Source: Minisyncoccota bacterium (GTDB taxonomy: Bacteria; Patescibacteriota; Minisyncoccia; Phycocordibacterales; UBA9973). From it: a stretch of DNA of 64,000 nt. The position numbers were made by a program, and so were the translations under genes. The notes below the pieces were generated by a model. It had not been told where the DNA came from, made no database searches, and saw nothing but the letters and a program-made list of their open reading frames with translations. Where the stretch lies: the NCBI GenBank assembly GCA_035353995.1, contig DAOQAL010000001.1, positions 145,464 through 209,463 of the forward strand, read 5' to 3'. This document shows positions 2,449-16,599 of this stretch, in pieces. Every line of letters begins with the position of its first letter. Position 1 is the stretch's first letter.

Positions 2449-3234
2449 ATGACAGAAAATTTAAAAACAAACAAAAAATGTTGGATTACAATGGCTATTG
2501 TAGCTATCGTTCTATGCGCAGGGTTAGTATATATGTGTTTGGAATGTTTTGGTGATAAGAATGAAAACATAAATGTAATTGCTATTTCTGGACACGGAGA
2601 AGTAAGTGCTACTCCTGATATTGCAAATATAAGCATCACTATATCTAAAGAAGCTAAAACAGTAAAAGAAGCACAAGAAGAAGTTGCAAAAGTTGAAAAA
2701 GAAGTTTTAAATTTGTTGAAAACAAACTCTGTTGATGATAAGGATATAAAAACAATAAATTCTTCTTTTAATCCTACTTATGAATATAAGTATGTTTCAA
2801 GCTACTGTACGCAATATAGCTGTCCTTCTTCTGGCAATAGAGTAATTGTTGGCTATGAAGCATATGAAAATATTTCTATAAAAATTAGAAATATAGATGA
2901 TTCAGGTAAAATAATACAAGGTCTTGGTGCATTAGGTTTGTCAGAGTTGTCAGGACCAAATTTTGCTATTGATAAAGAAGATGAATTAAAAGCAGAAGCT
3001 CGCAAAGAAGCCATTGATGATGCTCAATCTAAAGCAAAAAAATTGGCAAAAGATTTAGGTATAAAATTAGGTGATATAACGTCATTTAATGAGAATGGTA
3101 ATTACCCATCACGATTATATGCAAGTGATATGAGCGCAAAATTAGAAAGTGTAAATACGGCTTATGTGGCAGAACTTCCAAAAGGAGAGAATACTATAAC
3201 TTCTGATGTTACAATAACCTACGAAATAAGATAA
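2449..3234 (+). CDS. SIMPL/DUF541-family periplasmic protein
   Basis: N-terminal TM, SIMPL-like pattern (ISGHGEVSATPDIANISITI ... KEAQEEV). Confidence 0.55.
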   Translation: MTENLKTNKKCWITMAIVAIVLCAGLVYMCLECFGDKNENINVIAISGHGEVSATPDIANISITISKEAKTVKEAQEEVAKVEKEVLNLLKTNSVDDKDIKTINSSFNPTYEYKYVSSYCTQYSCPSSGNRVIVGYEAYENISIKIRNIDDSGKIIQGLGALGLSELSGPNFAIDKEDELKAEARKEAIDDAQSKAKKLAKDLGIKLGDITSFNENGNYPSRLYASDMSAKLESVNTAYVAELPKGENTITSDVTITYEIR

Positions 3235-3276
3235 AAACCAACGGTTGACTATTCTCCAAGAAAAGAGTATATTAAA

Positions 3277-3301
3277 AGAGCCCTTGAAAGGGGCTTTTTT
3301 A
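3277..3301 (+). terminator. Intrinsic terminator after SIMPL gene
   Basis: Hairpin AGCCC-ttgaaag-GGGCT followed by T6. Confidence 0.5.
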
Positions 3302-3321
3302 AAATAAAAAAAATAAATTTT

Positions 3322-3507
3322 ATGTCAAAGTCAAGCGAGTATTTTCAAGATATTAAGTCAGAGCTAAAACACGTTAATTGGCCTACTAAAAAACAAACAA
3401 TTGCTTATACAGTAATTGTAATTGTGCTTTCTATTTTAGTAGCATACTTCTTGGGACTATTTGATTTCATTTTCTCAACAGGTTTGGGAAAAATTATTTC
3501 ATTTTAA
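3322..3507 (+). CDS. secE: Preprotein translocase subunit SecE
   Basis: 61 aa, single C-terminal TM, position immediately upstream of nusG. Confidence 0.75.
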   Translation: MSKSSEYFQDIKSELKHVNWPTKKQTIAYTVIVIVLSILVAYFLGLFDFIFSTGLGKIISF

Positions 3508-3517
3508 TTTTTAATTT

Positions 3518-4063
3518 ATGTCAAAACAAGAAATACAAGGGGTAAGGAATTGGTATGCAATTCATACTTATGCCGGATATGAAAATGCGGTTCTTCGTAA
3601 TTTAAAGCAAAGAATAGATTCTCTTGGTATGAATGATAAAATTTTTAATGTCATTGTTCCAGTAGAAAAGAAAATAAAAATAAAAGCAGGTAAGAGAGTT
3701 GAAGTAGAAGAGAAAATTTACCCAGGATATGTTTTAGTAGATATGATTGTAACAGATGATTCTTGGTATGTTGTTAGAAATACACCAAGAGTAACAGGAT
3801 TTGTTGGGGCAGGAGTAAATCCAGTACCTTTGAAAAAAGATGAAGTAGATTATCTATTTAAGAAAATGGATACAAGTACAGTTAAACATAAAATGGATAT
3901 TGCAATTGGTGAGACGATAAGAATTGTTGATGGACCATTTAAAGATCTTGAGGGAAAAGTAAATTCACTAGATCAGGAGCGTGGAAAAATAAAGGTTCTT
4001 GTCTCTATGTTTGGTCGTGAGACACCAGTAGAATTAGATTTCTTGCAAGTTAAAAAAATATAA
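3518..4063 (+). CDS. nusG: Transcription termination/antitermination factor NusG
   Basis: NGN domain (WYAIHTYAGYE) and C-terminal KOW (GETIRIVDGPFKDLEGKV). Confidence 0.85.
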   Translation: MSKQEIQGVRNWYAIHTYAGYENAVLRNLKQRIDSLGMNDKIFNVIVPVEKKIKIKAGKRVEVEEKIYPGYVLVDMIVTDDSWYVVRNTPRVTGFVGAGVNPVPLKKDEVDYLFKKMDTSTVKHKMDIAIGETIRIVDGPFKDLEGKVNSLDQERGKIKVLVSMFGRETPVELDFLQVKKI

Positions 4064-8111: not shown

Positions 8112-10673
8112 ATGGACACTTTAAATTTTTTAAAAATTAAGTGGCACAAGATTACTTCTATCGTTTTATTGATTCTGCTTTTTGGTGCTTATGTAAATAT
8201 TTTTGCGATAGATCAAACTTATGATCCTGGTGAAACATTGGATCCAGAATGTGTGCCTGGTGAAGTAAATTGCACAGTAGAAATTCCTGTTTCACAATGG
8301 ACGACAAATGGAAGCAATATTTATTACGACTTAGGTAATGTTGGAATTGGAACAACTTTACCAAATCAACAATTAGAAATTACTCAAAACTTTAGACTTC
8401 CTTCTACAACTTACAATAGTGGAAATCCTTATGGAATAATTTACAAAGGAACAAATCCATTCATCCATGATTTCAATTATGGAAACAACGGTACTGTAAC
8501 GACAAGAGGACGCAATTTATTTATTGGTGAGAGTGCTGGTAACTTTACAATGGGGTCAACGGCAAATTACAGTAATAATTCTTCCAATAATATTGGAATA
8601 GGATTTCGCTCTTTGTATTCTAATACCACAGGATCTGAGAACTCTGCAGTAGGAAATTCTGCTCTTTATTTAAATACCACAGGAAGCGGTAACTCTGCAG
8701 TAGGAAATTCTGCTCTTTATTTTAATACAACAGGATCCACTAATTCTGCAATAGGAGATTATACTCTTTATTTAAATACCACAGGAAGCGGTAACTCTGC
8801 ATTAGGATCTGCTGCTCTTTATAGTAATACTGAAGGAAATTTTAACTCTGCAGTAGGATCTTTTGCTCTCTCTCGTAATACTATAGGAATTTATAACTCT
8901 GCAATTGGAAATAGAGCTGGTAGTTCTGTTGGTAATGGAGATAATCCAGGTATTGCCAGTAGTTACGGTGTATACATCGGTGCGTATGCCAAAGCTTTTG
9001 CCGATGGTGGTCAAAATGAAATTGTAATTGGTTATGATGCTACAGGTAACGGAAGTAATACAGCAACAATTGGAAACAGTTCTATATTAAGAACATATTT
9101 AAGAGGAGTAAATTTAGCAGGAGGTACAGCAACAGCAGGAACTGCTCCACTTAAATTTGTATCAGGAACATTACTTACAACTCCCGAGGCAGGCGCGATG
9201 GAATTTAATGGAACTAATTTATTTTTTACTCCTTCTTCTTCAAGAAAAAAAATTTCTTTTATAGAAGATCTTCCAATTACAATAGTTAATTCTTCAAGTC
9301 TTTTTTCAACAGGATTGTCTGGAACTGGTAGTGGAACAACAGCAGGGTATTCTATTTTTTTGGGAGTTGACGCAGGAGGTAGTGCTACTGGTGCAACATA
9401 CTCTAATTTTCTAGGTAATGGTGCTGGACTTAATGCAACTTCAGCAACAGCTTCAAATTTTTTCGGTTATTATGCTGGAGAAACAGCCACAGCAGCTAAT
9501 CATTCTAATTTCTTTGGCACTGAAGCTGGATACAGAGCTACTGGTGCACATTACTCAAATTTCTTTGGTAGTTATGCTGGCGAGTTCGCAGTAAATGCTA
9601 TTGAATCAAATTTTTTCGGTACTTCTGCTGGAGATTCTGCAGAAAATGCATCTCATTCAAATTTTATAGGCGATAATGCTGGAAATTATGCTTTAAATTC
9701 ATCACATTCAAACTTTTTTGGTACAGCTGCTGGTTACGCTGCTGAGAATGCATCAAATTCAATTTTTATAGGGTATAAGGCTGGAGAAAATGATACTGTC
9801 AACAATACTACAAATGCTAGTTATTATTCTATTCTTATAGGTCCAAGTACTAGCACTGATGGAAATGAAAATAGTATTGCATTGGGTGGTAGCGCAAAAA
9901 ATACAGCATCAAATCAATTTGTTATTGGTTCTGCTACAAGTCCGATAGATACAACTGTTATATATGGATCTGGCGGTACAATATGTACTATTACAACTGG
10001 AACGGGAATTGGTTGTTCTTCAGATGAGAATTTAAAAACAAATATTGTTGATTTAGATACGAACACTTTGGAAAAATTAACACAAGTAAGAACTGTAACT
10101 TTTAATTGGAAAAATCGAAATACTACTTCAAATAATATTGGATTTATTGCACAAGATTTAGAAAAATATTTTCCAGAATTAGTAAATACAGATCCAACTG
10201 GTTATAAATCAGTTTATTATGCAAACATAACTCCTATTTTAACTGAAGCTATAAGAGAACTTGATTTAAAAGTAAAAGAATTTTCTTCTATTGATGTTTC
10301 TAATGAAAATTCTTTTGCATCTTTAATTAAAAAATATTTGGCTGATGTTGCAAATGGTATTGAAATAGTTTTCTTTGGAGAAGTTCATACAAAACAATTG
10401 TGTATTGATGATGTTTGTATAAATAAAGATCAACTACAACAATTATTAGATAGTTCTAATATTACTAATACAATTACAAGCACTGTTACAGATACAGATA
10501 CAACAGAAAATACAAATTTGGAAAATGCTGACGATGCGGATAGTGATGAACCTGTAATAGATTCAGATATAGATTCTGAAAATATAGAAGAACAAGTAGT
10601 AGAAGAACAACAAAATAATGTAATTGAAGATGTAAATCCAAGTTTAGGTGCTGAACCAGTAGTAGAAGAATAG
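8112..10673 (+). CDS. Large secreted tail-fibre-like protein: Gly/Asn/Ser-rich beta-helical repeats plus intramolecular-chaperone (peptidase S74-like) domain and acidic C-terminal tail
   Basis: N-terminal TM/signal. Repeated NSAxGNSALYxNTTGS units. Motif SSDENLKTNI...TFNWKN...IGFIAQDLEKYFPELV typical of phage tail-fibre / endosialidase C-terminal chaperone domains. D/E-rich tail. Confidence 0.6.
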   Translation: MDTLNFLKIKWHKITSIVLLILLFGAYVNIFAIDQTYDPGETLDPECVPGEVNCTVEIPVSQWTTNGSNIYYDLGNVGIGTTLPNQQLEITQNFRLPSTTYNSGNPYGIIYKGTNPFIHDFNYGNNGTVTTRGRNLFIGESAGNFTMGSTANYSNNSSNNIGIGFRSLYSNTTGSENSAVGNSALYLNTTGSGNSAVGNSALYFNTTGSTNSAIGDYTLYLNTTGSGNSALGSAALYSNTEGNFNSAVGSFALSRNTIGIYNSAIGNRAGSSVGNGDNPGIASSYGVYIGAYAKAFADGGQNEIVIGYDATGNGSNTATIGNSSILRTYLRGVNLAGGTATAGTAPLKFVSGTLLTTPEAGAMEFNGTNLFFTPSSSRKKISFIEDLPITIVNSSSLFSTGLSGTGSGTTAGYSIFLGVDAGGSATGATYSNFLGNGAGLNATSATASNFFGYYAGETATAANHSNFFGTEAGYRATGAHYSNFFGSYAGEFAVNAIESNFFGTSAGDSAENASHSNFIGDNAGNYALNSSHSNFFGTAAGYAAENASNSIFIGYKAGENDTVNNTTNASYYSILIGPSTSTDGNENSIALGGSAKNTASNQFVIGSATSPIDTTVIYGSGGTICTITTGTGIGCSSDENLKTNIVDLDTNTLEKLTQVRTVTFNWKNRNTTSNNIGFIAQDLEKYFPELVNTDPTGYKSVYYANITPILTEAIRELDLKVKEFSSIDVSNENSFASLIKKYLADVANGIEIVFFGEVHTKQLCIDDVCINKDQLQQLLDSSNITNTITSTVTDTDTTENTNLENADDADSDEPVIDSDIDSENIEEQVVEEQQNNVIEDVNPSLGAEPVVEE
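8621..8880 (+). repeat. Tandem ~60-bp coding repeats inside tail-fibre-like gene
   Basis: Near-identical nucleotide units (...aactctgcagtaggaaattctgctctttatttaaataccacaggaagcggt...) repeated about 4 times. Confidence 0.6.
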
Positions 10674-10699: not shown

Positions 10700-12451
10700 A
10701 TGACTAAAACTTTCAAAAAGTTTTTAAAATATATTTTTGTTTTTATATTTTTTAGTATTCCTTTTACATTTCTTTTTGCTTCCGAGACAGATGGGACAAT
10801 AAATTCTATAAACCATAGTGCACTTCTTTGTGAAAATTATACATGCACTACAACTACACAAATTAATTTTTTGACTAGTCGTGGTCAAGCAGTACAGGTA
10901 ACTGATACAAAACTAACTGGTCATATTTGGTCTGAAAAAACAGGATGGATTAATTTAAACTCATCTAATGGTGGAGTTACAAATACAGAAGATGGAACTC
11001 TTGGTGGTTATGCTTGGGGAGAAAATACGGGATGGATAAATTTTAATCCAACAAATGGTGGTGTAACTATAAATAATTCTGGCAAATTTGTTGGGTGGGC
11101 TTGGGCACAAAATTACGGGTGGATTAAGTTTAATTGTAGCGTTGCAAATGCTTGTGTAGAAACAGATTGGCGCCCCATTGGTGCTCGTGATGGTGGTAGT
11201 AGTGGTAGTACAGGAGGTGGCACAACTGGAGGAGAAGGAGAAACACCAACTCCAACACCAAATCCTACGCCAATACCAGAAGAACCAGTAGAAATACCAA
11301 TTAACCCTTTACCTGTAGAATTACCTGTAGAGCCAGAAAATGTTCCAATTCAAATAGATGAGGAGACTAATGATGTTGAAACTGAATCAAATAATACACA
11401 AATACAAAATATTTTAGATGAAGGTGCTAATTTTTTAGATGACATTTTTCTAATTTTACAAACAGCAATAAATACAATATTTAATATATTTAGTACACCA
11501 ATAGGAAGTATTGTTTCAAAAACACTAGCTACTATCGGTGTTGTAACTGGATTTTACTTTAGTCTTATATCAATGTTCACAAACCCACTTTCATTTTCTG
11601 AATTAATATTAATACCTATGCGATTGTGGAGTTTATTGTTGGTTGCTTTTGGTGTTAAGAAACGCAATCGTCCTTGGGGAACAGTCTACGATAGTGTTAC
11701 AAAACAACCCCTTGATCCTGCATATGTTGTTCTTCAAGATTTAAATGGAAATGAAATTGCTACATCCATTACAGACTTGGATGGTCGTTATGGTTTTCTT
11801 GTTCCTGCTGGCCAATATAGAATTGTTGCCAATAAAACAAATTATGAATTTCCTTCAAAAAAAATGGCTGGTAAATCAAGTGATGAATTATATCAAGAAT
11901 TATATTTCAATGAAGTTATAAATGTTAATGAAGATGGGGAAGTTATTTCAAAAAATATACCAATGGATCCGATTAAGTTTGATTGGAATGAATTTGCTAA
12001 AAGAGATCAAAATGTTATGAGATTTTTTTCAAAGCGAGAAATTTGGATTGCTCGTGCTTCAAATACTTTATTTATTTTAGGTTTTTTGTTTTCTATAATT
12101 GCTACGATAATTTCTCCTAATGTATACAACATAATAATTATTTGTACTTATGCATTGTTATTCATACTGAAGAAAACAATTTTGAAGCATAAAGTGCTTG
12201 GCTGGATAAGACAAAAGGAAACAAAAAATCCACTTTCGTTTGCAATAATGAGAGTATTTTTTGCTGATAGTGGAAATGAAGTTATACATAAAGTTACTGA
12301 TAAAACAGGAAAATATTACTGTCTAATACCAAATGGAAGGTATTACGCCAAGATAGAAAATAAAAATCTTGATGAAAGATATAGTCTTGTTTATACTTCA
12401 GAACCTATAGAGGTCAAAAAAGGTTATATAAATAAAAAATTTGAAGTTTAA
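10700..12451 (+). CDS. Secreted/membrane protein with three W-rich GWINFN-type repeats, Pro/Thr-rich linker, TM helices and two carboxypeptidase-regulatory-like beta-sandwich domains
   Basis: Signal peptide. Repeats TGWINLNSSNGGVT / TGWINFNPTNGGVT / YGWIKFNCS. Linker TPTPTPNPTPIPEEPVEIP. CarbopepD_reg-like segments (DLDGRYGF..AGQYRI; TDKTGKYYCLIPNGRYYAKI). Confidence 0.5.
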   Translation: MTKTFKKFLKYIFVFIFFSIPFTFLFASETDGTINSINHSALLCENYTCTTTTQINFLTSRGQAVQVTDTKLTGHIWSEKTGWINLNSSNGGVTNTEDGTLGGYAWGENTGWINFNPTNGGVTINNSGKFVGWAWAQNYGWIKFNCSVANACVETDWRPIGARDGGSSGSTGGGTTGGEGETPTPTPNPTPIPEEPVEIPINPLPVELPVEPENVPIQIDEETNDVETESNNTQIQNILDEGANFLDDIFLILQTAINTIFNIFSTPIGSIVSKTLATIGVVTGFYFSLISMFTNPLSFSELILIPMRLWSLLLVAFGVKKRNRPWGTVYDSVTKQPLDPAYVVLQDLNGNEIATSITDLDGRYGFLVPAGQYRIVANKTNYEFPSKKMAGKSSDELYQELYFNEVINVNEDGEVISKNIPMDPIKFDWNEFAKRDQNVMRFFSKREIWIARASNTLFILGFLFSIIATIISPNVYNIIIICTYALLFILKKTILKHKVLGWIRQKETKNPLSFAIMRVFFADSGNEVIHKVTDKTGKYYCLIPNGRYYAKIENKNLDERYSLVYTSEPIEVKKGYINKKFEV

Positions 12452-12537: not shown

Positions 12538-12960
12538 ATGCCTACAATAAATCAATTAGTAAAAAATAAAAGAAGAAAAGTTGTCCGAAAGTCAAAAACT
12601 GTCGCTTTAGCACGTGGTTTTAATGTGTTAAAGAATAGACCAGTGTATTATCCTGCTCCATTCAAGAGGGGAGTTTGTACAAAAGTAACTACAACTACAC
12701 CTAAGAAACCAAACTCAGCTCTACGAAAAATTGCAAGAGTAAGGTTAACAAATGGAATGGAAGTAACTGCTTATATACCAGGAGAAGGACATAATTTACA
12801 AGAACACTCAGTTGTAATGCTTCGTGGTGGACGTGTGAAAGACTTGATTGGAGTAAGATATCACATTGTTCGTGGTGTACTCGATACACAAGGGGTTGAA
12901 AAACGAAGACAAGGAAGATCATTGTATGGTAATAAACGACCAAAAGAAAGCAAAAAATAA
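12538..12960 (+). CDS. rpsL: 30S ribosomal protein S12
   Basis: [14 protein letters not shown]...[10 protein letters not shown]. Confidence 0.9.
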
Positions 12961-12971
12961 TTTAAAATAAT

Positions 12972-13442
12972 ATGAGACGAAAAGTAAAAAACAGAAATAT
13001 AGTAGAGCCAGACTTTTTATACAATTCCCAAAAATTGGAGAAGTTTATTAATTACATTATGTGGTCTGGGAAAAAAGAAACTGCACGAAAAGTAATGTAT
13101 GAAGCATTTGAACTTATAAAAGAAAAAACAGGAAATCCAAACCCTCTTGAGGTTTTTGACTTAGCATTAAAGAATGCAGGGCCATTAACTGAAGTTAGAT
13201 CAAAAAGAATTGGAGGTGCAAACTATCAGGTTCCTCGTGAGGTTCGTCCAGAAAGAAGACTTGCTCTTGCTATGAGATGGATAAGAGATGCAGCTCGCTC
13301 AAAAAAAGGACAGCCTATGCATATAAAACTTGCTGATGAACTTATCGCAGCTTCAAAAAACGAAGGTGCTGCTATTAAGAAAAAAGAAGATACACACAAA
13401 ATGGCAGAAGCCAACAAAGCCTTTGCTCACTTTGCTTGGTAA
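12972..13442 (+). CDS. rpsG: 30S ribosomal protein S7
   Basis: S7 signature, 156 aa, directly after rpsL. Confidence 0.9.
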   Translation: MRRKVKNRNIVEPDFLYNSQKLEKFINYIMWSGKKETARKVMYEAFELIKEKTGNPNPLEVFDLALKNAGPLTEVRSKRIGGANYQVPREVRPERRLALAMRWIRDAARSKKGQPMHIKLADELIAASKNEGAAIKKKEDTHKMAEANKAFAHFAW

Positions 13443-13504
13443 TTTTTTACTTTGTAAAAAATTATTCTGAGCGTAGTTGAAGGATATATTAAAATATTTA
13501 AAAC

Positions 13505-13536
13505 AAAAACTCCCCATTGGGGAGTTTTTGTCATTT
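13505..13536. terminator. Bidirectional intrinsic terminator after rpsG
   Basis: AAAAACTCCCC-att-GGGGAGTTTTT flanked by A and T runs; also abuts the stop of the minus-strand ORF 13537..13881. Confidence 0.7.
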
Positions 13537-13881
13537 TTAGTTCATATTAGAGAATTGTTTGCCTTCTTTTATTTTTGTTGGATATCCTATTGTTTTTCCA
13601 TTGTTAATAAAATCTTTTCGTACTGTAATCTCTTTTCTCGCTAATAACTCTCCTTCAACTCGAGTATGTAATTCTGGATTTTTATCTGTGCTAAAACTTT
13701 TTAAAGCAGACTTTAATTCTTCTGTGCTTATTTTAGATAAATCACCATAAAGGTATTTATCTTTTTTATTTTCATTCAAATCTTGTTGTCTTTCAAATTT
13801 TTCCATATATTTTATAGTGTTACTACTAATAGCGAGATTATAGTCTTGTGTTAACAAAAAAGCAAAAATATTTGTACACAT
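13537..13881 (-). CDS. Hypothetical small protein (114 aa; start uncertain, alt. Met at 13806)
   Basis: ORF only; no recognisable domain; divergent from Cas2-like ORF. Confidence 0.35.
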   Translation of the reverse strand: MCTNIFAFLLTQDYNLAISSNTIKYMEKFERQQDLNENKKDKYLYGDLSKISTEELKSALKSFSTDKNPELHTRVEGELLARKEITVRKDFINNGKTIGYPTKIKEGKQFSNMN

Positions 13882-13908
13882 ATCAGCTATCGCGTATATA
13901 TGTAAATA
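13879..13908. promoter_or_regulatory. Imperfect palindrome CACATATCAGCTATCGCGTATATATG plus first copy of 16-bp direct repeat GCGTATATATGTAAAT, in divergent intergenic region
   Basis: Read directly; right half-site identical to the perfect palindrome at 14311..14336. Confidence 0.4.
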
Positions 13909-13923
13909 TATTATAATTTAAAT

Positions 13924-14292
13924 ATGTCTCCTTATTATAAGGGAATGAAAGTAAATTTACTTGGTTTTCCGGTTAGCAATTCTAATAAAAGCGACCGTGT
14001 AAAAAAGAATGGAAGAAAGAGAAAATTTTATCATCTTTCTTTTTCGTCTCCTTTTCCAGAAAATGCACCGAAGAATTTGCTTTTAGTCTATGATATTCCA
14101 GAACTAATGAAAAAAGAGCGAGATTGGTTTCGCCGACAACTTATTAGTTTTGGTTTTGTGATGATTCAGAAAAGTGTCTGGGTAGGGCCATCACCTTTGC
14201 CGAAAGAATTTCTTAATTATTTGAAATTGATAAAAAAAGGGGACAACTTTAAGACTTTTAAATTAGCGAAAGGGTACGAAACTAAAAAATAA
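13924..14292 (+). CDS. Small protein with Cas2/VapD-like motif pattern and ~50-aa basic N-terminal extension
   Basis: Segment LLLVYDIPELMKKERDWFRRQLISFGFVMIQKSVWVG...FKTFKL parallels Cas2 beta1 (LVxYD[IV]) -helix- (GxRxQxSV[FW]) - C-terminal strand pattern; assignment is by motif only. Confidence 0.4.
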   Translation: MSPYYKGMKVNLLGFPVSNSNKSDRVKKNGRKRKFYHLSFSSPFPENAPKNLLLVYDIPELMKKERDWFRRQLISFGFVMIQKSVWVGPSPLPKEFLNYLKLIKKGDNFKTFKLAKGYETKK

Positions 14293-14310
14293 AGCATAGG
14301 AACCCAAATA

Positions 14311-14340
14311 CATATATACGCTATAGCGTATATATGTAAA
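14311..14340. promoter_or_regulatory. Perfect 26-bp palindrome CATATATACGCTATAGCGTATATATG plus second copy of GCGTATATATGTAAAT
   Basis: Reverse complement identical over 26 bp; lies between Cas2-like ORF stop and fusA promoter. Confidence 0.45.
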
Positions 14341-14367
14341 TTGGAGTATGCATAAACCATTTTTTAT

Positions 14368-14396
14368 TTGCAAAAAAGCTACATATGTTATATATT
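14368..14396 (+). promoter_or_regulatory. Candidate sigma70-type promoter for fusA (TTGCAA-17-TATATT)
   Basis: Good -35/-10 spacing; followed at the predicted 5' end by hairpin AAGCGC-aatc-GCGCTT plus T5 (14402..14421). Confidence 0.4.
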
Positions 14397-14445
14397 ACGG
14401 GAAGCGCAATCGCGCTTTTTAATATTAAATTATAAAAGATTATTT

Positions 14446-16599
14446 ATGGAAAGAGATTATCCACTAGAAAAAGTTAGAAATATTGGAATTATTGCGCACA
14501 TTGACGCTGGTAAAACTACTACCAGTGAACGTATTTTGTATTACACAGGAATGTCTCACAAAATTGGAGAAGTTCATGACGGGGAAGCTACAACTGACTG
14601 GATGGAACAAGAAAGAGAGCGTGGTATTACTATTACTTCAGCAGCTATAACTTGTTTCTGGACTCCAACATATACTCTTCCAACGGACAAAGCAAAGAAA
14701 CATCGTTTCAATATTATTGACACACCAGGGCACATTGATTTTACAGTGGAAGTAAAAAGATCTCTTCGCGTACTTGATGGTGCTGTTGTTGTTTTTGATG
14801 GAGTTGCAGGAGTAGAACCACAATCAGAAACAAACTGGAGATATGCTGACGAAGCTAAAGTTCCTCGTATTTGTTTTGTTAATAAATTGGATAGAACTGG
14901 AGCATCATTTGAACATTCATTTGCAACTATTCTTGATCGTCTTACAAAAAAGGCTGTTAGAATGCAAATTCCTATCGGTTTGGAAGACAAACACGAGGGA
15001 GTTGTTGATTTGTTAAAAATGAAAGCTTATTACTTTGAAGGAGAAATGGGTAATAAAGTAATAGAAAAAGAAATTCCAGAGGAATTAAAAGCTGATGCAG
15101 AAAAATACCATAACGAACTCATTGAAAAAATAGTTGAACAAGACGAAAAAGCAATGAGTGATTATTTTGAAGGAAAAATTCCAGATATTGATACTTTGAA
15201 AAAATTATTAAGAAAAGGAGTTATTGCTAATGAAGTTTTCCCAGTATTTACTGGTTCTGCTTTAAAAAATAAAGGAGTACAGCTTGTTTTGGATGGTGTA
15301 GTAGATTATTTGCCATCACCACTTGATATTCCTCCAGTAACAGGAACAGATCCAAATAACGATGATGAACCAATTATAAGAAAAGCCTCTGACGAAGAAC
15401 CATTTTCTGCTCTTGCATTTAAAGTTGCTACAGATCCATTTGTTGGTCAATTAATTTTCTTTAGAGTTTATTCTGGATCATTAAATTCTGGTTCTTATAT
15501 TTATAATCCTCGTACTCGAAATAAAGAAAGAATAGGAAGAATTTTACGAATGCATGCAAACGATAGAGAAGAAGTTAAAAAAGTTTTTGCTGGAGAAATT
15601 GCTGCAGCGGTTGGTTTGAAAGATACAATTACTTCAGATACTTTATGTGATGAAGAAAAACCAATTGAATTGGATAGAATTTCTTTCCCAGAGCCAGTTA
15701 TTCAATTACGTATTGAACCAAAGACAAAAGCTGATCAAGAAAAAATGGGTATGGCACTTAACCGTCTTGCACAAGAAGATCCAACATTTAAAGTTTCAAC
15801 AGATCAAGAAACAGGTGAGACAATTATAGCTGGAATGGGAGAATTGCATTTGGAAATTATTGTTGATCGTATGAAAAGAGAATTTACAGTTGAAGCAAAT
15901 GTTGGTAAACCACAGGTAGCTTATAGGGAAACAATTACAGGAGATTCTGAAGCAGAAGGAAAATATATTAAGCAATCAGGTGGACGTGGAAACTATGGAC
16001 ACGTAAAGATAAAGATAAAGCCAATGAAAATTCTTACTAAAGAAGAGATTGAAGATTTACCTAAAAATACAAAAAGATCTGAAGGCTTTGAATTCATTAA
16101 TACTATTAAAGGTGGAGTTATTCCTCAAGAATATATTGCTCCTTGTGAAAAAGGATTTAAAGAAGGTTTGGATAGAGGTGTACTTGCAGGATTTAAGATT
16201 GTAAATGTTTCAGTAGAATTATGGGATGGTTCTTATCACGAGGTTGACTCAAACGAAATGGCCTTTAAGATTGCAGCATCAATGGCAATACAAGATGCTT
16301 GTAAGAGAGCTAAACCTGTAATATTGGAACCTATGATGAAAGTTGAAGTTGTAACACCAGAAAAATTTATGGGAGATGTGACAGGAAATCTTTCTTCAAA
16401 GAGAGGAATCATTGAAGGAATGGAAGACAGAGGAATGAATAAAGTTCTTCGAGCAATTGTTCCATTGTCAGAAATGTTTGGATATATGACTGGTCTTCGT
16501 TCTATGACTGAAGGTAGAGCATCATTTACAATGGAATTCATACGTTACGATATTGTTCCACAAAATGTTGCTGATACAATCATCGCTTCAAGAAAATAA
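14446..16599 (+). CDS. fusA: Elongation factor G
   Basis: [26 protein letters not shown] and full-length EF-G domains; start at MERDYPLEK. Confidence 0.95.

Follow-up and report, generated by a model that had tools for sequence, protein, structure and literature searches.

A palindrome-bracketed Cas2-fold gene between rpsG and fusA in Patescibacteria: a probable autoregulatory cassette

What is a small gene flanked by two palindromes doing between rpsG and fusA in the str operon of a Minisyncoccota bacterium? The question is raised by a 64,000-nt stretch of contig DAOQAL010000001.1 (assembly GCA_035353995.1, positions 145,464 to 209,463 of the forward strand), hereafter the window, in which the rpsL-rpsG-fusA operon is split by an insert holding two divergent small open reading frames (ORFs), one of 114 aa on the minus strand and one of 122 aa on the plus strand (ORF122), as an initial annotation made from the sequence had reported. 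That annotation took the insert for an autoregulated module of toxin-antitoxin type or a mobile-element remnant. All evidence presented here is computational, and it covers the 64-kb window of this genome and about ±4 kb around each of the other copies. ORF122 is probably a dimeric, palindrome-binding autoregulator encoded within a self-contained cassette, so that the palindromes as cognate sites survive from the earlier interpretation, whereas the toxin-antitoxin and remnant parts of it do not.

Relatives of ORF122 are encoded at 337 loci in species-representative genomes, and 80 of these loci were fetched for comparison. The 467-bp unit at 13875-14341 of the window, composed of a palindrome, a promoter, the 122-aa gene and a second palindrome, is typical of the family (~80 loci), the core TACGC[C/T]AT[G/A]GCGTA being found upstream of the gene and again just past or overlapping its stop codon. 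Scanned with the six positions that are invariant in each arm, 605 kb of family loci contained 168 sites versus 0-9 in shuffled sequence, and 145 of the 168 lie at cassette ends. Related loci resemble each other in DNA sequence from ~50 nt 5' of the ATG to 40-50 nt past the stop codon, limits that coincide with the outer ends of the palindromes. In 70 of 72 loci the upstream dyad is 33-37 bp before the ATG, and the -10 box agrees with TATAAT at all six positions in 44 of 76 loci and at five of six in another 26. The gap between this box and the ATG is 6-7 nt in 66 of the 76 loci and 5 nt in the window, a regularity that is inflated by the fact that starts were picked partly via the -10 box, which does not apply to the palindrome-to-box distance. 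A box 5-7 nt from the ATG implies a leaderless or near-leaderless mRNA. The upstream palindrome covers about -50 to -20, the place of a -35 element, and the promoter possesses no -35 element. The second palindrome is located at the stop codon or at most 45 bp past it in nearly all family loci: in 25 loci its dyad falls within the gene, 8 nt from the end, and the site codes for the C-terminal residues -ISAMA and the stop codon; in the others the dyad is 10-44 nt past the stop.

In the window, the downstream copy is a perfect palindrome with zero spacer at 14309-14338, in which TACATATATACGCTA meets TAGCGTATATATGTA at a dyad between 14323 and 14324, 31 bp past the ORF122 stop codon. It had been described as perfect and 26 bp long; the perfection stands and the length is 30 bp. 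Folded as a DNA hairpin it reaches -13.8 kcal/mol (z -7.9). A degenerate copy had been proposed in the divergent intergenic region, and this corresponds to a 33-nt repeat at 13875-13907 sharing 88% identity with 14309-14341; its core 14-mer TCAGCTATCGCGTA is at 13883-13896 and its dyad between 13889 and 13890, 34 bp 5' of the ATG, and it exhibits no hairpin fold (z -0.9). The 16-mer reported twice, at 13893 and 14325, is present in two copies that start at 13892 and 14326. Even with up to three mismatches allowed, the 30-mer matches nowhere else in the window (0 in 100 shuffles), no further copy of ORF122 or of the site is present in the 64 kb, and the pair around ORF122 is the only such pair there, the other long palindromes of the window being classical terminators. 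No T-run follows the cassette palindromes on their 3' side, and on this ground intrinsic termination was rejected as their function.

The anatomy of the sites was compared across the family together with that of the protein. Arm positions 1, 3, 4, 7, 9 and 10 from the dyad are nearly invariant and the half-site consensus is T-[G/A]-G-C-G-T-A-[T/A]-A-T; positions k2, 8 and 11-15, numbered in the same way, vary by locus yet co-vary, with a complementarity of 65-80% versus 30-50% expected. The base pair adjoining the dyad changes in step with residue 60 of the protein, which follows the DIP tripeptide and stands where helix 1 begins: His60 (also Ser, Gln and Phe) occurs with C..G (CCATGG), and Glu60 or Asp60 with T..A or T..C (CTATAG, CTATCG). 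At k2, His60 is accompanied by G (30 of 30 loci) and Glu or Asp60 by A or C (30 of 30), and the mutual information between residue and base is 0.94 versus 0.43 for the 95% null. When the changes are placed on a neighbour-joining tree, each of the 11 inferred switches in residue class shares a branch with a base switch (16 base switches on 142 branches; P<1e-4). The same association is seen in a syntenic pair of loci with 79% DNA identity over 1.26 kb, in which the window has Glu60 and the centres TATC and TATA, and L165 has His60 and the centre CATG. Arg25 in the basic arm and G at k13 go together (40 of 40 loci); other co-variation between the outer arm (k8, k11-14) and residues of the N-terminal arm barely exceeded the shuffled null and was not used. 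By the general rules of protein-DNA recognition, a carboxylate would be expected opposite the amino group of A or C, and G opposite His or Gln. The residue-60 pattern is what these rules predict for readout of a base pair in the major groove, which suggests that a Cas2-fold domain may be able to read the sequence of double-stranded DNA. Conserved together with the gene in ~80 loci, placed over the -35 region at the upstream end and co-varying with a residue of the protein, the palindromes behave as cognate sites of ORF122.

One variant of the sites is recurrent: TCAGC replaces TACGC in 58 of 155 family sites (~37%), invariably confined to the arm that is on the left when read in gene direction, as at 13883-13887 in the window. 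In 25 loci the variant supplies codons of the conserved -ISAMA C-terminus and its stop, and it is not forced by coding.

ORF122 is a basic protein (pI 10.2, 26 Lys and Arg residues) in which residues 1-50 hold a YYKG..VN.FG.P motif and a basic arm and residues 50-118 a beta-alpha-beta-beta-alpha-beta domain. This domain matches the Pfam family PaaX_M ("central Cas2-like domain of PaaX", PF20803) over residues 53-115 with E=9.3e-13 and 48.5 bits against a cutoff of 24. The match to Pfam Cas2 is weaker and still passes (27.1 bits, cutoff 23.8), and the TIGR01573 and PADLOC Cas2 models also match, just past their cut-offs. Neither the PaaX winged helix (PF07848) nor PaaX_C gave a Pfam match in ORF122, which stops after the central domain, and TIGR02277 reached 18.8 bits, below its cutoff of 264.55. 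An AlphaFold (AF2) model from 94 homologues (pLDDT 75), which replaced an earlier one from 23 sequences (pLDDT 60), places the beta-alpha-beta-beta-alpha-beta core at residues 50-118. The segment LLLVYDIPE aligns with the beta-1 strand of Cas2 and the Asp at its catalytic position, and this residue, Asp57, is invariant in the family. The Cas2/VapD-like motif read earlier from the translation therefore belongs to a Cas2/PaaX_M fold according to the Pfam, TIGR01573, PADLOC and AF2 models alike, and the basic N-terminal extension of ~50 aa described with it is present and conserved in the family.

More than 1,970 proteins match ORF122 over its full length, N-terminal part included, with 60-84% identity, all of them from Paceibacteria-type Patescibacteria and named "Cas2" or "PaaX" in the databases. 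The cassette of the window is intact and the large family to which it belongs is under strong purifying selection, at odds with the notion of a remnant. One family copy is apparently decaying: at L063 (4001-4303), the N-terminal part is missing, only residues 25-118 match, the ORF is 71 aa long and the downstream site is kept. Some cassette records are titled Gammaproteobacteria, Burkholderiales or Saccharibacteria (L026, L034 and several among L005-L080) and have Paceibacteria-like neighbours; these are probably mis-binned contigs or mislabelled metagenome-assembled genomes. The domain family is already in Pfam and the proteins are public under misleading names, and it is the cassette itself that is undescribed: no published account of the ORF122 family, its flanking palindromes or a DNA-reading Cas2-like domain was found in the full-text literature, a coverage in which subscription journals are largely not included.

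An exhaustive profile-free search returned 1,165 cluster representatives, many of them about 165 aa in length. These longer relatives possess a YYKG..VN.FGLP motif, an inserted winged helix with weak similarities to HTH_45, PaaX_N, PadR and BlaI, and then the same Cas2-like domain, and ORF122 has a basic linker of 22 aa where they have a recognition helix and wing. Among the 80 metagenome loci sampled for them, a word of at least 11 nt is common to the upstream and downstream flanks in 49 of 73 long-form loci versus 1 of 49 control window pairs. The long-form palindromes have the centre GCnATnGC and arms of up to 27 nt, with upstream and downstream copies often mirrored. DIP-E occurs with [T/G]AT[A/C] centres in 36 of 36 loci and DIP-Q with CAT[G/A] in 4 of 5. 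Some long forms (L093, L096, L159) carry the exact ORF122 core TACGCTATAGCGTA, and since this core is used with and without a winged helix, the shared Cas2-like domain, not the winged helix, is likely to be the core reader. At L081, ~36 nt past the stop codon of a 164-aa relative, lies a near-perfect zero-spacer palindrome of 54 bp (27-nt arms, at most one mismatch allowed), which is unusually long for a bacterial chromosome.

The fold, the geometry of the cassette, the conservation of the sites and the co-variation of protein and site are direct results of the computations; from them we infer dimer binding, repression, looping or insulation, and any role past self-control. ORF122 is a relative of PaaX-like proteins that lacks the winged helix-turn-helix, and its Cas2-fold domain would most probably form a dimer centred on the palindrome dyad. 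The first part of helix 1, where residue 60 sits beside the conserved Cas2 Asp57, would read the base pair adjoining the centre, and the conserved basic helix 1 (KKERDWFRR) together with the basic N-terminal arm would touch both the GCG/TA positions, which are invariant, and the outer arm, which varies. Binding at the upstream site, at about -50 to -20 of its own promoter, would repress the ORF122 gene and result in negative autoregulation. The second site, past the stop codon, could strengthen repression by looping, or it could act as a roadblock that insulates the cassette from strongly transcribed neighbours.

Several points weigh against an autoregulator. DNA binding, dimerisation and repression are all steps that we infer, and a regulator whose sole target is itself would be biologically unusual: of 157 sites, only 12 are found elsewhere than at a cassette, mostly flanking a variable neighbour gene. 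The downstream site is kept even where the next gene is convergent, and fixed promoter geometry follows only 2 of 85 downstream or extra sites, a count on which a model of these sites as operators of the next gene was rejected. In the window, the upstream one of the two candidate operators is the degenerate copy. The protein possesses no classical DNA-binding motif, the Cas2-like domain of PaaX is not the known DNA-binding part of that protein, and the conserved Asp57 is equally compatible with a nuclease. The AF2 confidence is moderate (pLDDT 75), with the N-terminal ~50 residues poorly modelled or poorly ordered, and the neighbour-joining tree of a 122-aa protein is poorly resolved, so that the 11 "independent" switches are perhaps over-counted.

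The cassette occupies recurrent slots in housekeeping gene clusters: rpsL-rpsG-X-fusA, where X is the cassette (20 loci including the window), SMC-X, ThrRS/X/NusB, FolD-X-PAP2-SecDF, ArgRS-helicase-X and Pth-X-DnaE, the gene identities in these slots being a reading of the cluster sequences. A single genome may hold cassettes in several slots; one 198-kb contig carries two short forms and one long form whose outer arms differ, and within-genome paralogues have 59-71% aa identity. In the protein tree, one slot holds several clades and one clade extends over several slots. In one genome, the copies L017 and L040 share 91% DNA identity along a stretch of exactly 479 bp that runs from one palindrome end to the other, between unrelated flanks. 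Some loci form arrays of the type site-gene-site-X-site, in which extra palindromes bracket one variable neighbour gene (L015, L054, L070, L026, L047, L078) that is P-loop kinase-like, peptidase E-like or unknown. Tandem sites of different arm types are present at L039 and L056, and L012 has a solo site 3.6 kb away.

Synteny of rpsG and fusA was compared in relatives found through rpsG (90-94% identity). In L162, L163 and L167 the two genes are adjacent or 126 nt apart; in L161 the spacer holds a 90-aa GIY-YIG nuclease-like gene (3179-3451), and in L164 an unrelated 157-aa orphan (3090-3563). No palindrome sites were found in the scanned DNA of L161-L164, and L167 was judged by its gene table only. 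The cassette is present in this slot in the window, L165 and the P0276 contig. It is thus missing from the spacer in 5 of 5 of the close relatives found through rpsG and not universal in the lineage, and the comparison that the initial annotation had called for identifies the locus as an insertion. Judged from the loci compared, the cassette is an accessory unit that is gained, lost and copied in intergenic slots of housekeeping clusters, and no fixed part of the str operon. The rpsG-fusA spacer is seemingly a hotspot for accessory or selfish genes. A motif, ACTACGCTCA, lies just after rpsG in the window (13469-13481, reverse strand), and in L161 it forms a direct repeat flanking the GIY-YIG insertion (about 2975-2990 and about 3465-3480), where it may mark a target or duplication of another element.

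Such a distribution could also be that of a small mobile element, in which the palindromes would be ends or recombination sites and the Cas2-fold protein, through Asp57, a nuclease or recombinase that cuts near the dyad; the element would leave as a circle and enter at sites already resident, with autoregulation as a side effect of the kind known from insertion sequences. The predicted recognition sites of the protein do flank its gene, many loci have the slight asymmetry of the centre in mirrored form (GCGATAGC upstream, GCTATCGC downstream), and the invariant Asp57 aligns with the catalytic Asp of Cas2. The patchy presence in the rpsG-fusA spacer of close relatives, the exchange of slots among clades, the end-to-end copy in L017/L040, and the arrays, tandem sites and solo sites of different arm types would fit as well. 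However, patchiness and polyphyly can also result from homologous recombination via the conserved flanking genes, and the L017/L040 copy from gene conversion between paralogues. Most within-genome paralogues are old, some positions are syntenic across species, and the orientation is that of the flanking genes in 20 of 20 loci of the rpsG-fusA slot. ORF122 has neither a transposase nor a recombinase fold. No target-site duplications were found, the words shared by the flanks matching the null distribution, and a DDE-type transposon was rejected for that reason. Hybrid sites of the Campbell type were likewise rejected, as inner-inner and outer-outer half-sites match no better than half-sites within a site and no attL/attR pattern was seen, and a phage or plasmid origin was rejected because IMG/VR, INPHARED and PLSDB, which collect viral, phage and plasmid sequences, contain no relatives. 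A small mobile element, though the leading alternative, is on balance an unlikely explanation, and the stronger proposition that the cassettes are autonomous mobile units of Patescibacteria, with a Cas2-fold nuclease or recombinase acting at its own palindromic ends, is a little less likely again.

A reading at the RNA level has also to be considered, in which the upstream gene's transcript and the cassette mRNA would each have a palindrome as a hairpin at the 3' end, and ORF122 would be a Cas2/VapD-like RNA binder or RNase acting on these hairpins. Some Cas2 and VapD proteins are ribonucleases according to the descriptions of 3exc and 3ui3, the downstream palindrome would lie in the 3' untranslated region and folds strongly, and extra sites are found between co-directional genes with no promoter after them. 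This is nevertheless improbable: the upstream site lies 5' of the gene's own -10 box at a fixed distance, no Rfam match reaches its gathering score, and the residue-60 rule fits readout of a base pair in the major groove. Moreover, palindrome mismatches exhibit no excess of G.T over A.C on either strand (G.U versus the alternative, 27 versus 24 upstream and 36 versus 51 downstream), and with neither a G.U bias nor a 3' T-run, a function as RNA hairpin or terminator is unsupported. Hardly credible, finally, is an orphaned genuine CRISPR Cas2, as the NCBI name implies, or a toxin paired with the 114-aa ORF. ORF122 does exceed the cut-offs of the Cas2 models narrowly and the divergent ORFs share the intergenic palindrome, but PaaX_M scores far better than Cas2, the N-terminal extension of 50 aa is conserved, and the 114-aa ORF is missing from the other loci. 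No CRISPR-like repeats are present within the 64-kb window, where the initial annotation, too, had seen no array beside the Cas2-like gene; neighbours are housekeeping genes in ~80 loci, with several copies per genome, and no locus examined has cas1 and an array or a partner gene. A genuine Cas2 was rejected on this context.

The minus-strand ORF has two matches among 5.8 billion database proteins, namely itself (called as 89 aa) and one relative, also 89 aa, with 75% identity that occupies the same slot in a close relative of the window genome. Differences between the two by codon position are 12/11/32, and this excess at third positions indicates that the ORF is coding. No Pfam family matches it, and it is absent from the other family loci, a singleton among 81. 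It is probably a real orphan gene of 89 aa, and, as far as its distribution can tell, it is not a partner of ORF122; on this ground the two-gene or toxin-antitoxin module once envisaged was rejected. By eye, a sigma-70-like promoter for the 89-aa gene (TTGCTT, 17 nt, TATAAT) can be seen at 13837-13865 on the minus strand; a gap of ~10 nt separates it from the upstream palindrome's outer end, and a palindrome-binding protein could also influence that gene.

The limits of the insert follow from the empty-site relative L162, in which the terminator directly adjoins the same fusA promoter and leader; the insert in the window therefore comprises ~830 bp, 13537-14366 (Table 1). The fusA promoter sequence of the window is also found in L161, L162 and L164, and promoter and leader are unchanged with or without the cassette. 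A break of ~0.8 kb with terminators on both sides had been described, of which the insert and the left terminator are retained. The hairpin at 14402-14421, taken for the right terminator, lies 3' of the fusA promoter and is kept in insert-free relatives, and is consequently a leader hairpin of fusA, not a boundary of the insert. In the window, L161, L162 and L164, the fusA promoter-like site (TTTGCA, 18 nt, TATATT) is directly followed by this GC hairpin and its T-run, GAAGCGCnnnnGCGCTTTTT, an arrangement suggestive of a fusA leader or transcription attenuator in the lineage. Ahead of the str operon, an 853-aa ORF (8112-10673) contains tandem 51-nt (17-aa) repeats at 8616-8909 and 9555-9767, and the adjacent ORF at 10700-12451 (583 aa) has a GWINF-type repeat motif and C-terminal membrane segments, its position being conserved in other loci (cluster 23).

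Table 1. Coordinates of features at the rpsG-fusA locus of the window
Feature	Position	Strand	Remarks
rpsL	12538-12960		
rpsG	12972-13442		
rpsG intrinsic terminator hairpin	13503-13531	+	13-pair stem, then T-run to about 13541; left border of the insert
Orphan minus-strand ORF, 114 aa	13537-13881	-	probable product 89 aa, 13537-13806
Upstream palindrome copy, proposed operator 1	13875-13907		33-nt element, 88% identical to 14309-14341
-10 box TATAAT	13913-13918	+	5 nt before the ATG by direct count
122-aa gene (ORF122)	13924-14292	+	N-terminal motif and basic arm, then Cas2/PaaX_M-like domain
Perfect 30-bp palindrome, proposed operator 2	14309-14338		downstream of ORF122
fusA promoter-like site	14367-14396	+	TTTGCA/TTGCAA, 17-18 nt spacer, TATATT; right border of the insert
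fusA leader hairpin	14402-14421	+	AAGCGC/GCGCTT with T-run; fold -6.9 kcal/mol; belongs to fusA, not to the insert
fusA	ATG at 14447		

If ORF122 is a palindrome-binding autoregulator, its co-variation with the site offers a recognition rule, Glu or Asp60 with A or C next to the dyad and His or Gln60 with G, and the cassette a defined promoter-operator pair for study in uncultivated bacteria. To our knowledge, almost nothing is known of the transcription factors, promoters and leaderless mRNAs of these uncultivated, reduced-genome bacteria. Thousands of Patescibacteria entries labelled "CRISPR-associated endonuclease Cas2" or "PaaX" appear to be wrongly named, and genome surveys that count orphan cas2 genes in these lineages would be misled by them. 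Should the cassettes prove to be self-mobile, they would constitute a new class of mobile element inside the most conserved bacterial operons; ORF122 would then be the first Cas2-like enzyme with sequence-specific action on palindromes outside CRISPR, and possibly a relative of the ancestor of the CRISPR adaptation module.

Among known systems, the best Pfam match of ORF122 is the central Cas2-like domain of PaaX, the phenylacetyl-CoA-responsive repressor of E. coli (PDB 8A39; PF07848, PF20803 and PF08223). The N-terminal winged helix of PaaX is also found in the longer relatives of ORF122, unlike in ORF122 itself, which lacks PaaX_C as well. Both proteins are repressors of palindromic operators, ORF122 presumably so, but the operator of ORF122 is a 30-bp zero-spacer palindrome that brackets the gene, and no paa genes are present in any neighbourhood. 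DNA reading by the Cas2-like domain is not known for PaaX, whereas in ORF122 it is this domain that appears to read DNA. With the CRISPR Cas2 proteins (type II-A-like; 5ZYF, 5XVN, 7CR6), ORF122 has in common the ferredoxin-like fold and the motifs hhhh[FY]D[IM]P ... GF.M.Q.SV[WY], including the Asp at the catalytic position, and CRISPR Cas2 lies as a dimer on double-stranded DNA within the Cas1-Cas2 complex. ORF122 differs in having no cas1 or array, a 50-aa extension, several copies per genome in housekeeping clusters, and what appears to be a sequence-specific association with palindromes flanking its own gene.

Two further comparisons concern function and architecture. Papillomavirus E2, EBNA1 and LANA possess a dimerising beta-alpha-beta-beta-alpha-beta module whose helix 1 reads a palindrome, and in ORF122 it is likewise where helix 1 begins that the co-varying residue 60 stands; the sequences are unrelated and those proteins act at viral origins, so that the likeness is a functional analogy only. 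Insertion sequences, in which a transposase acts on terminal inverted repeats that lie over its own promoter, resemble the ORF122 cassette in that the gene is flanked by its own predicted sites, the upstream one over the -35 region, and in that the unit can be copied from end to end, as in L017/L040. The cassette is set apart from them by the lack of a transposase fold and of target-site duplications, by old paralogues and by positions that are in part syntenic.

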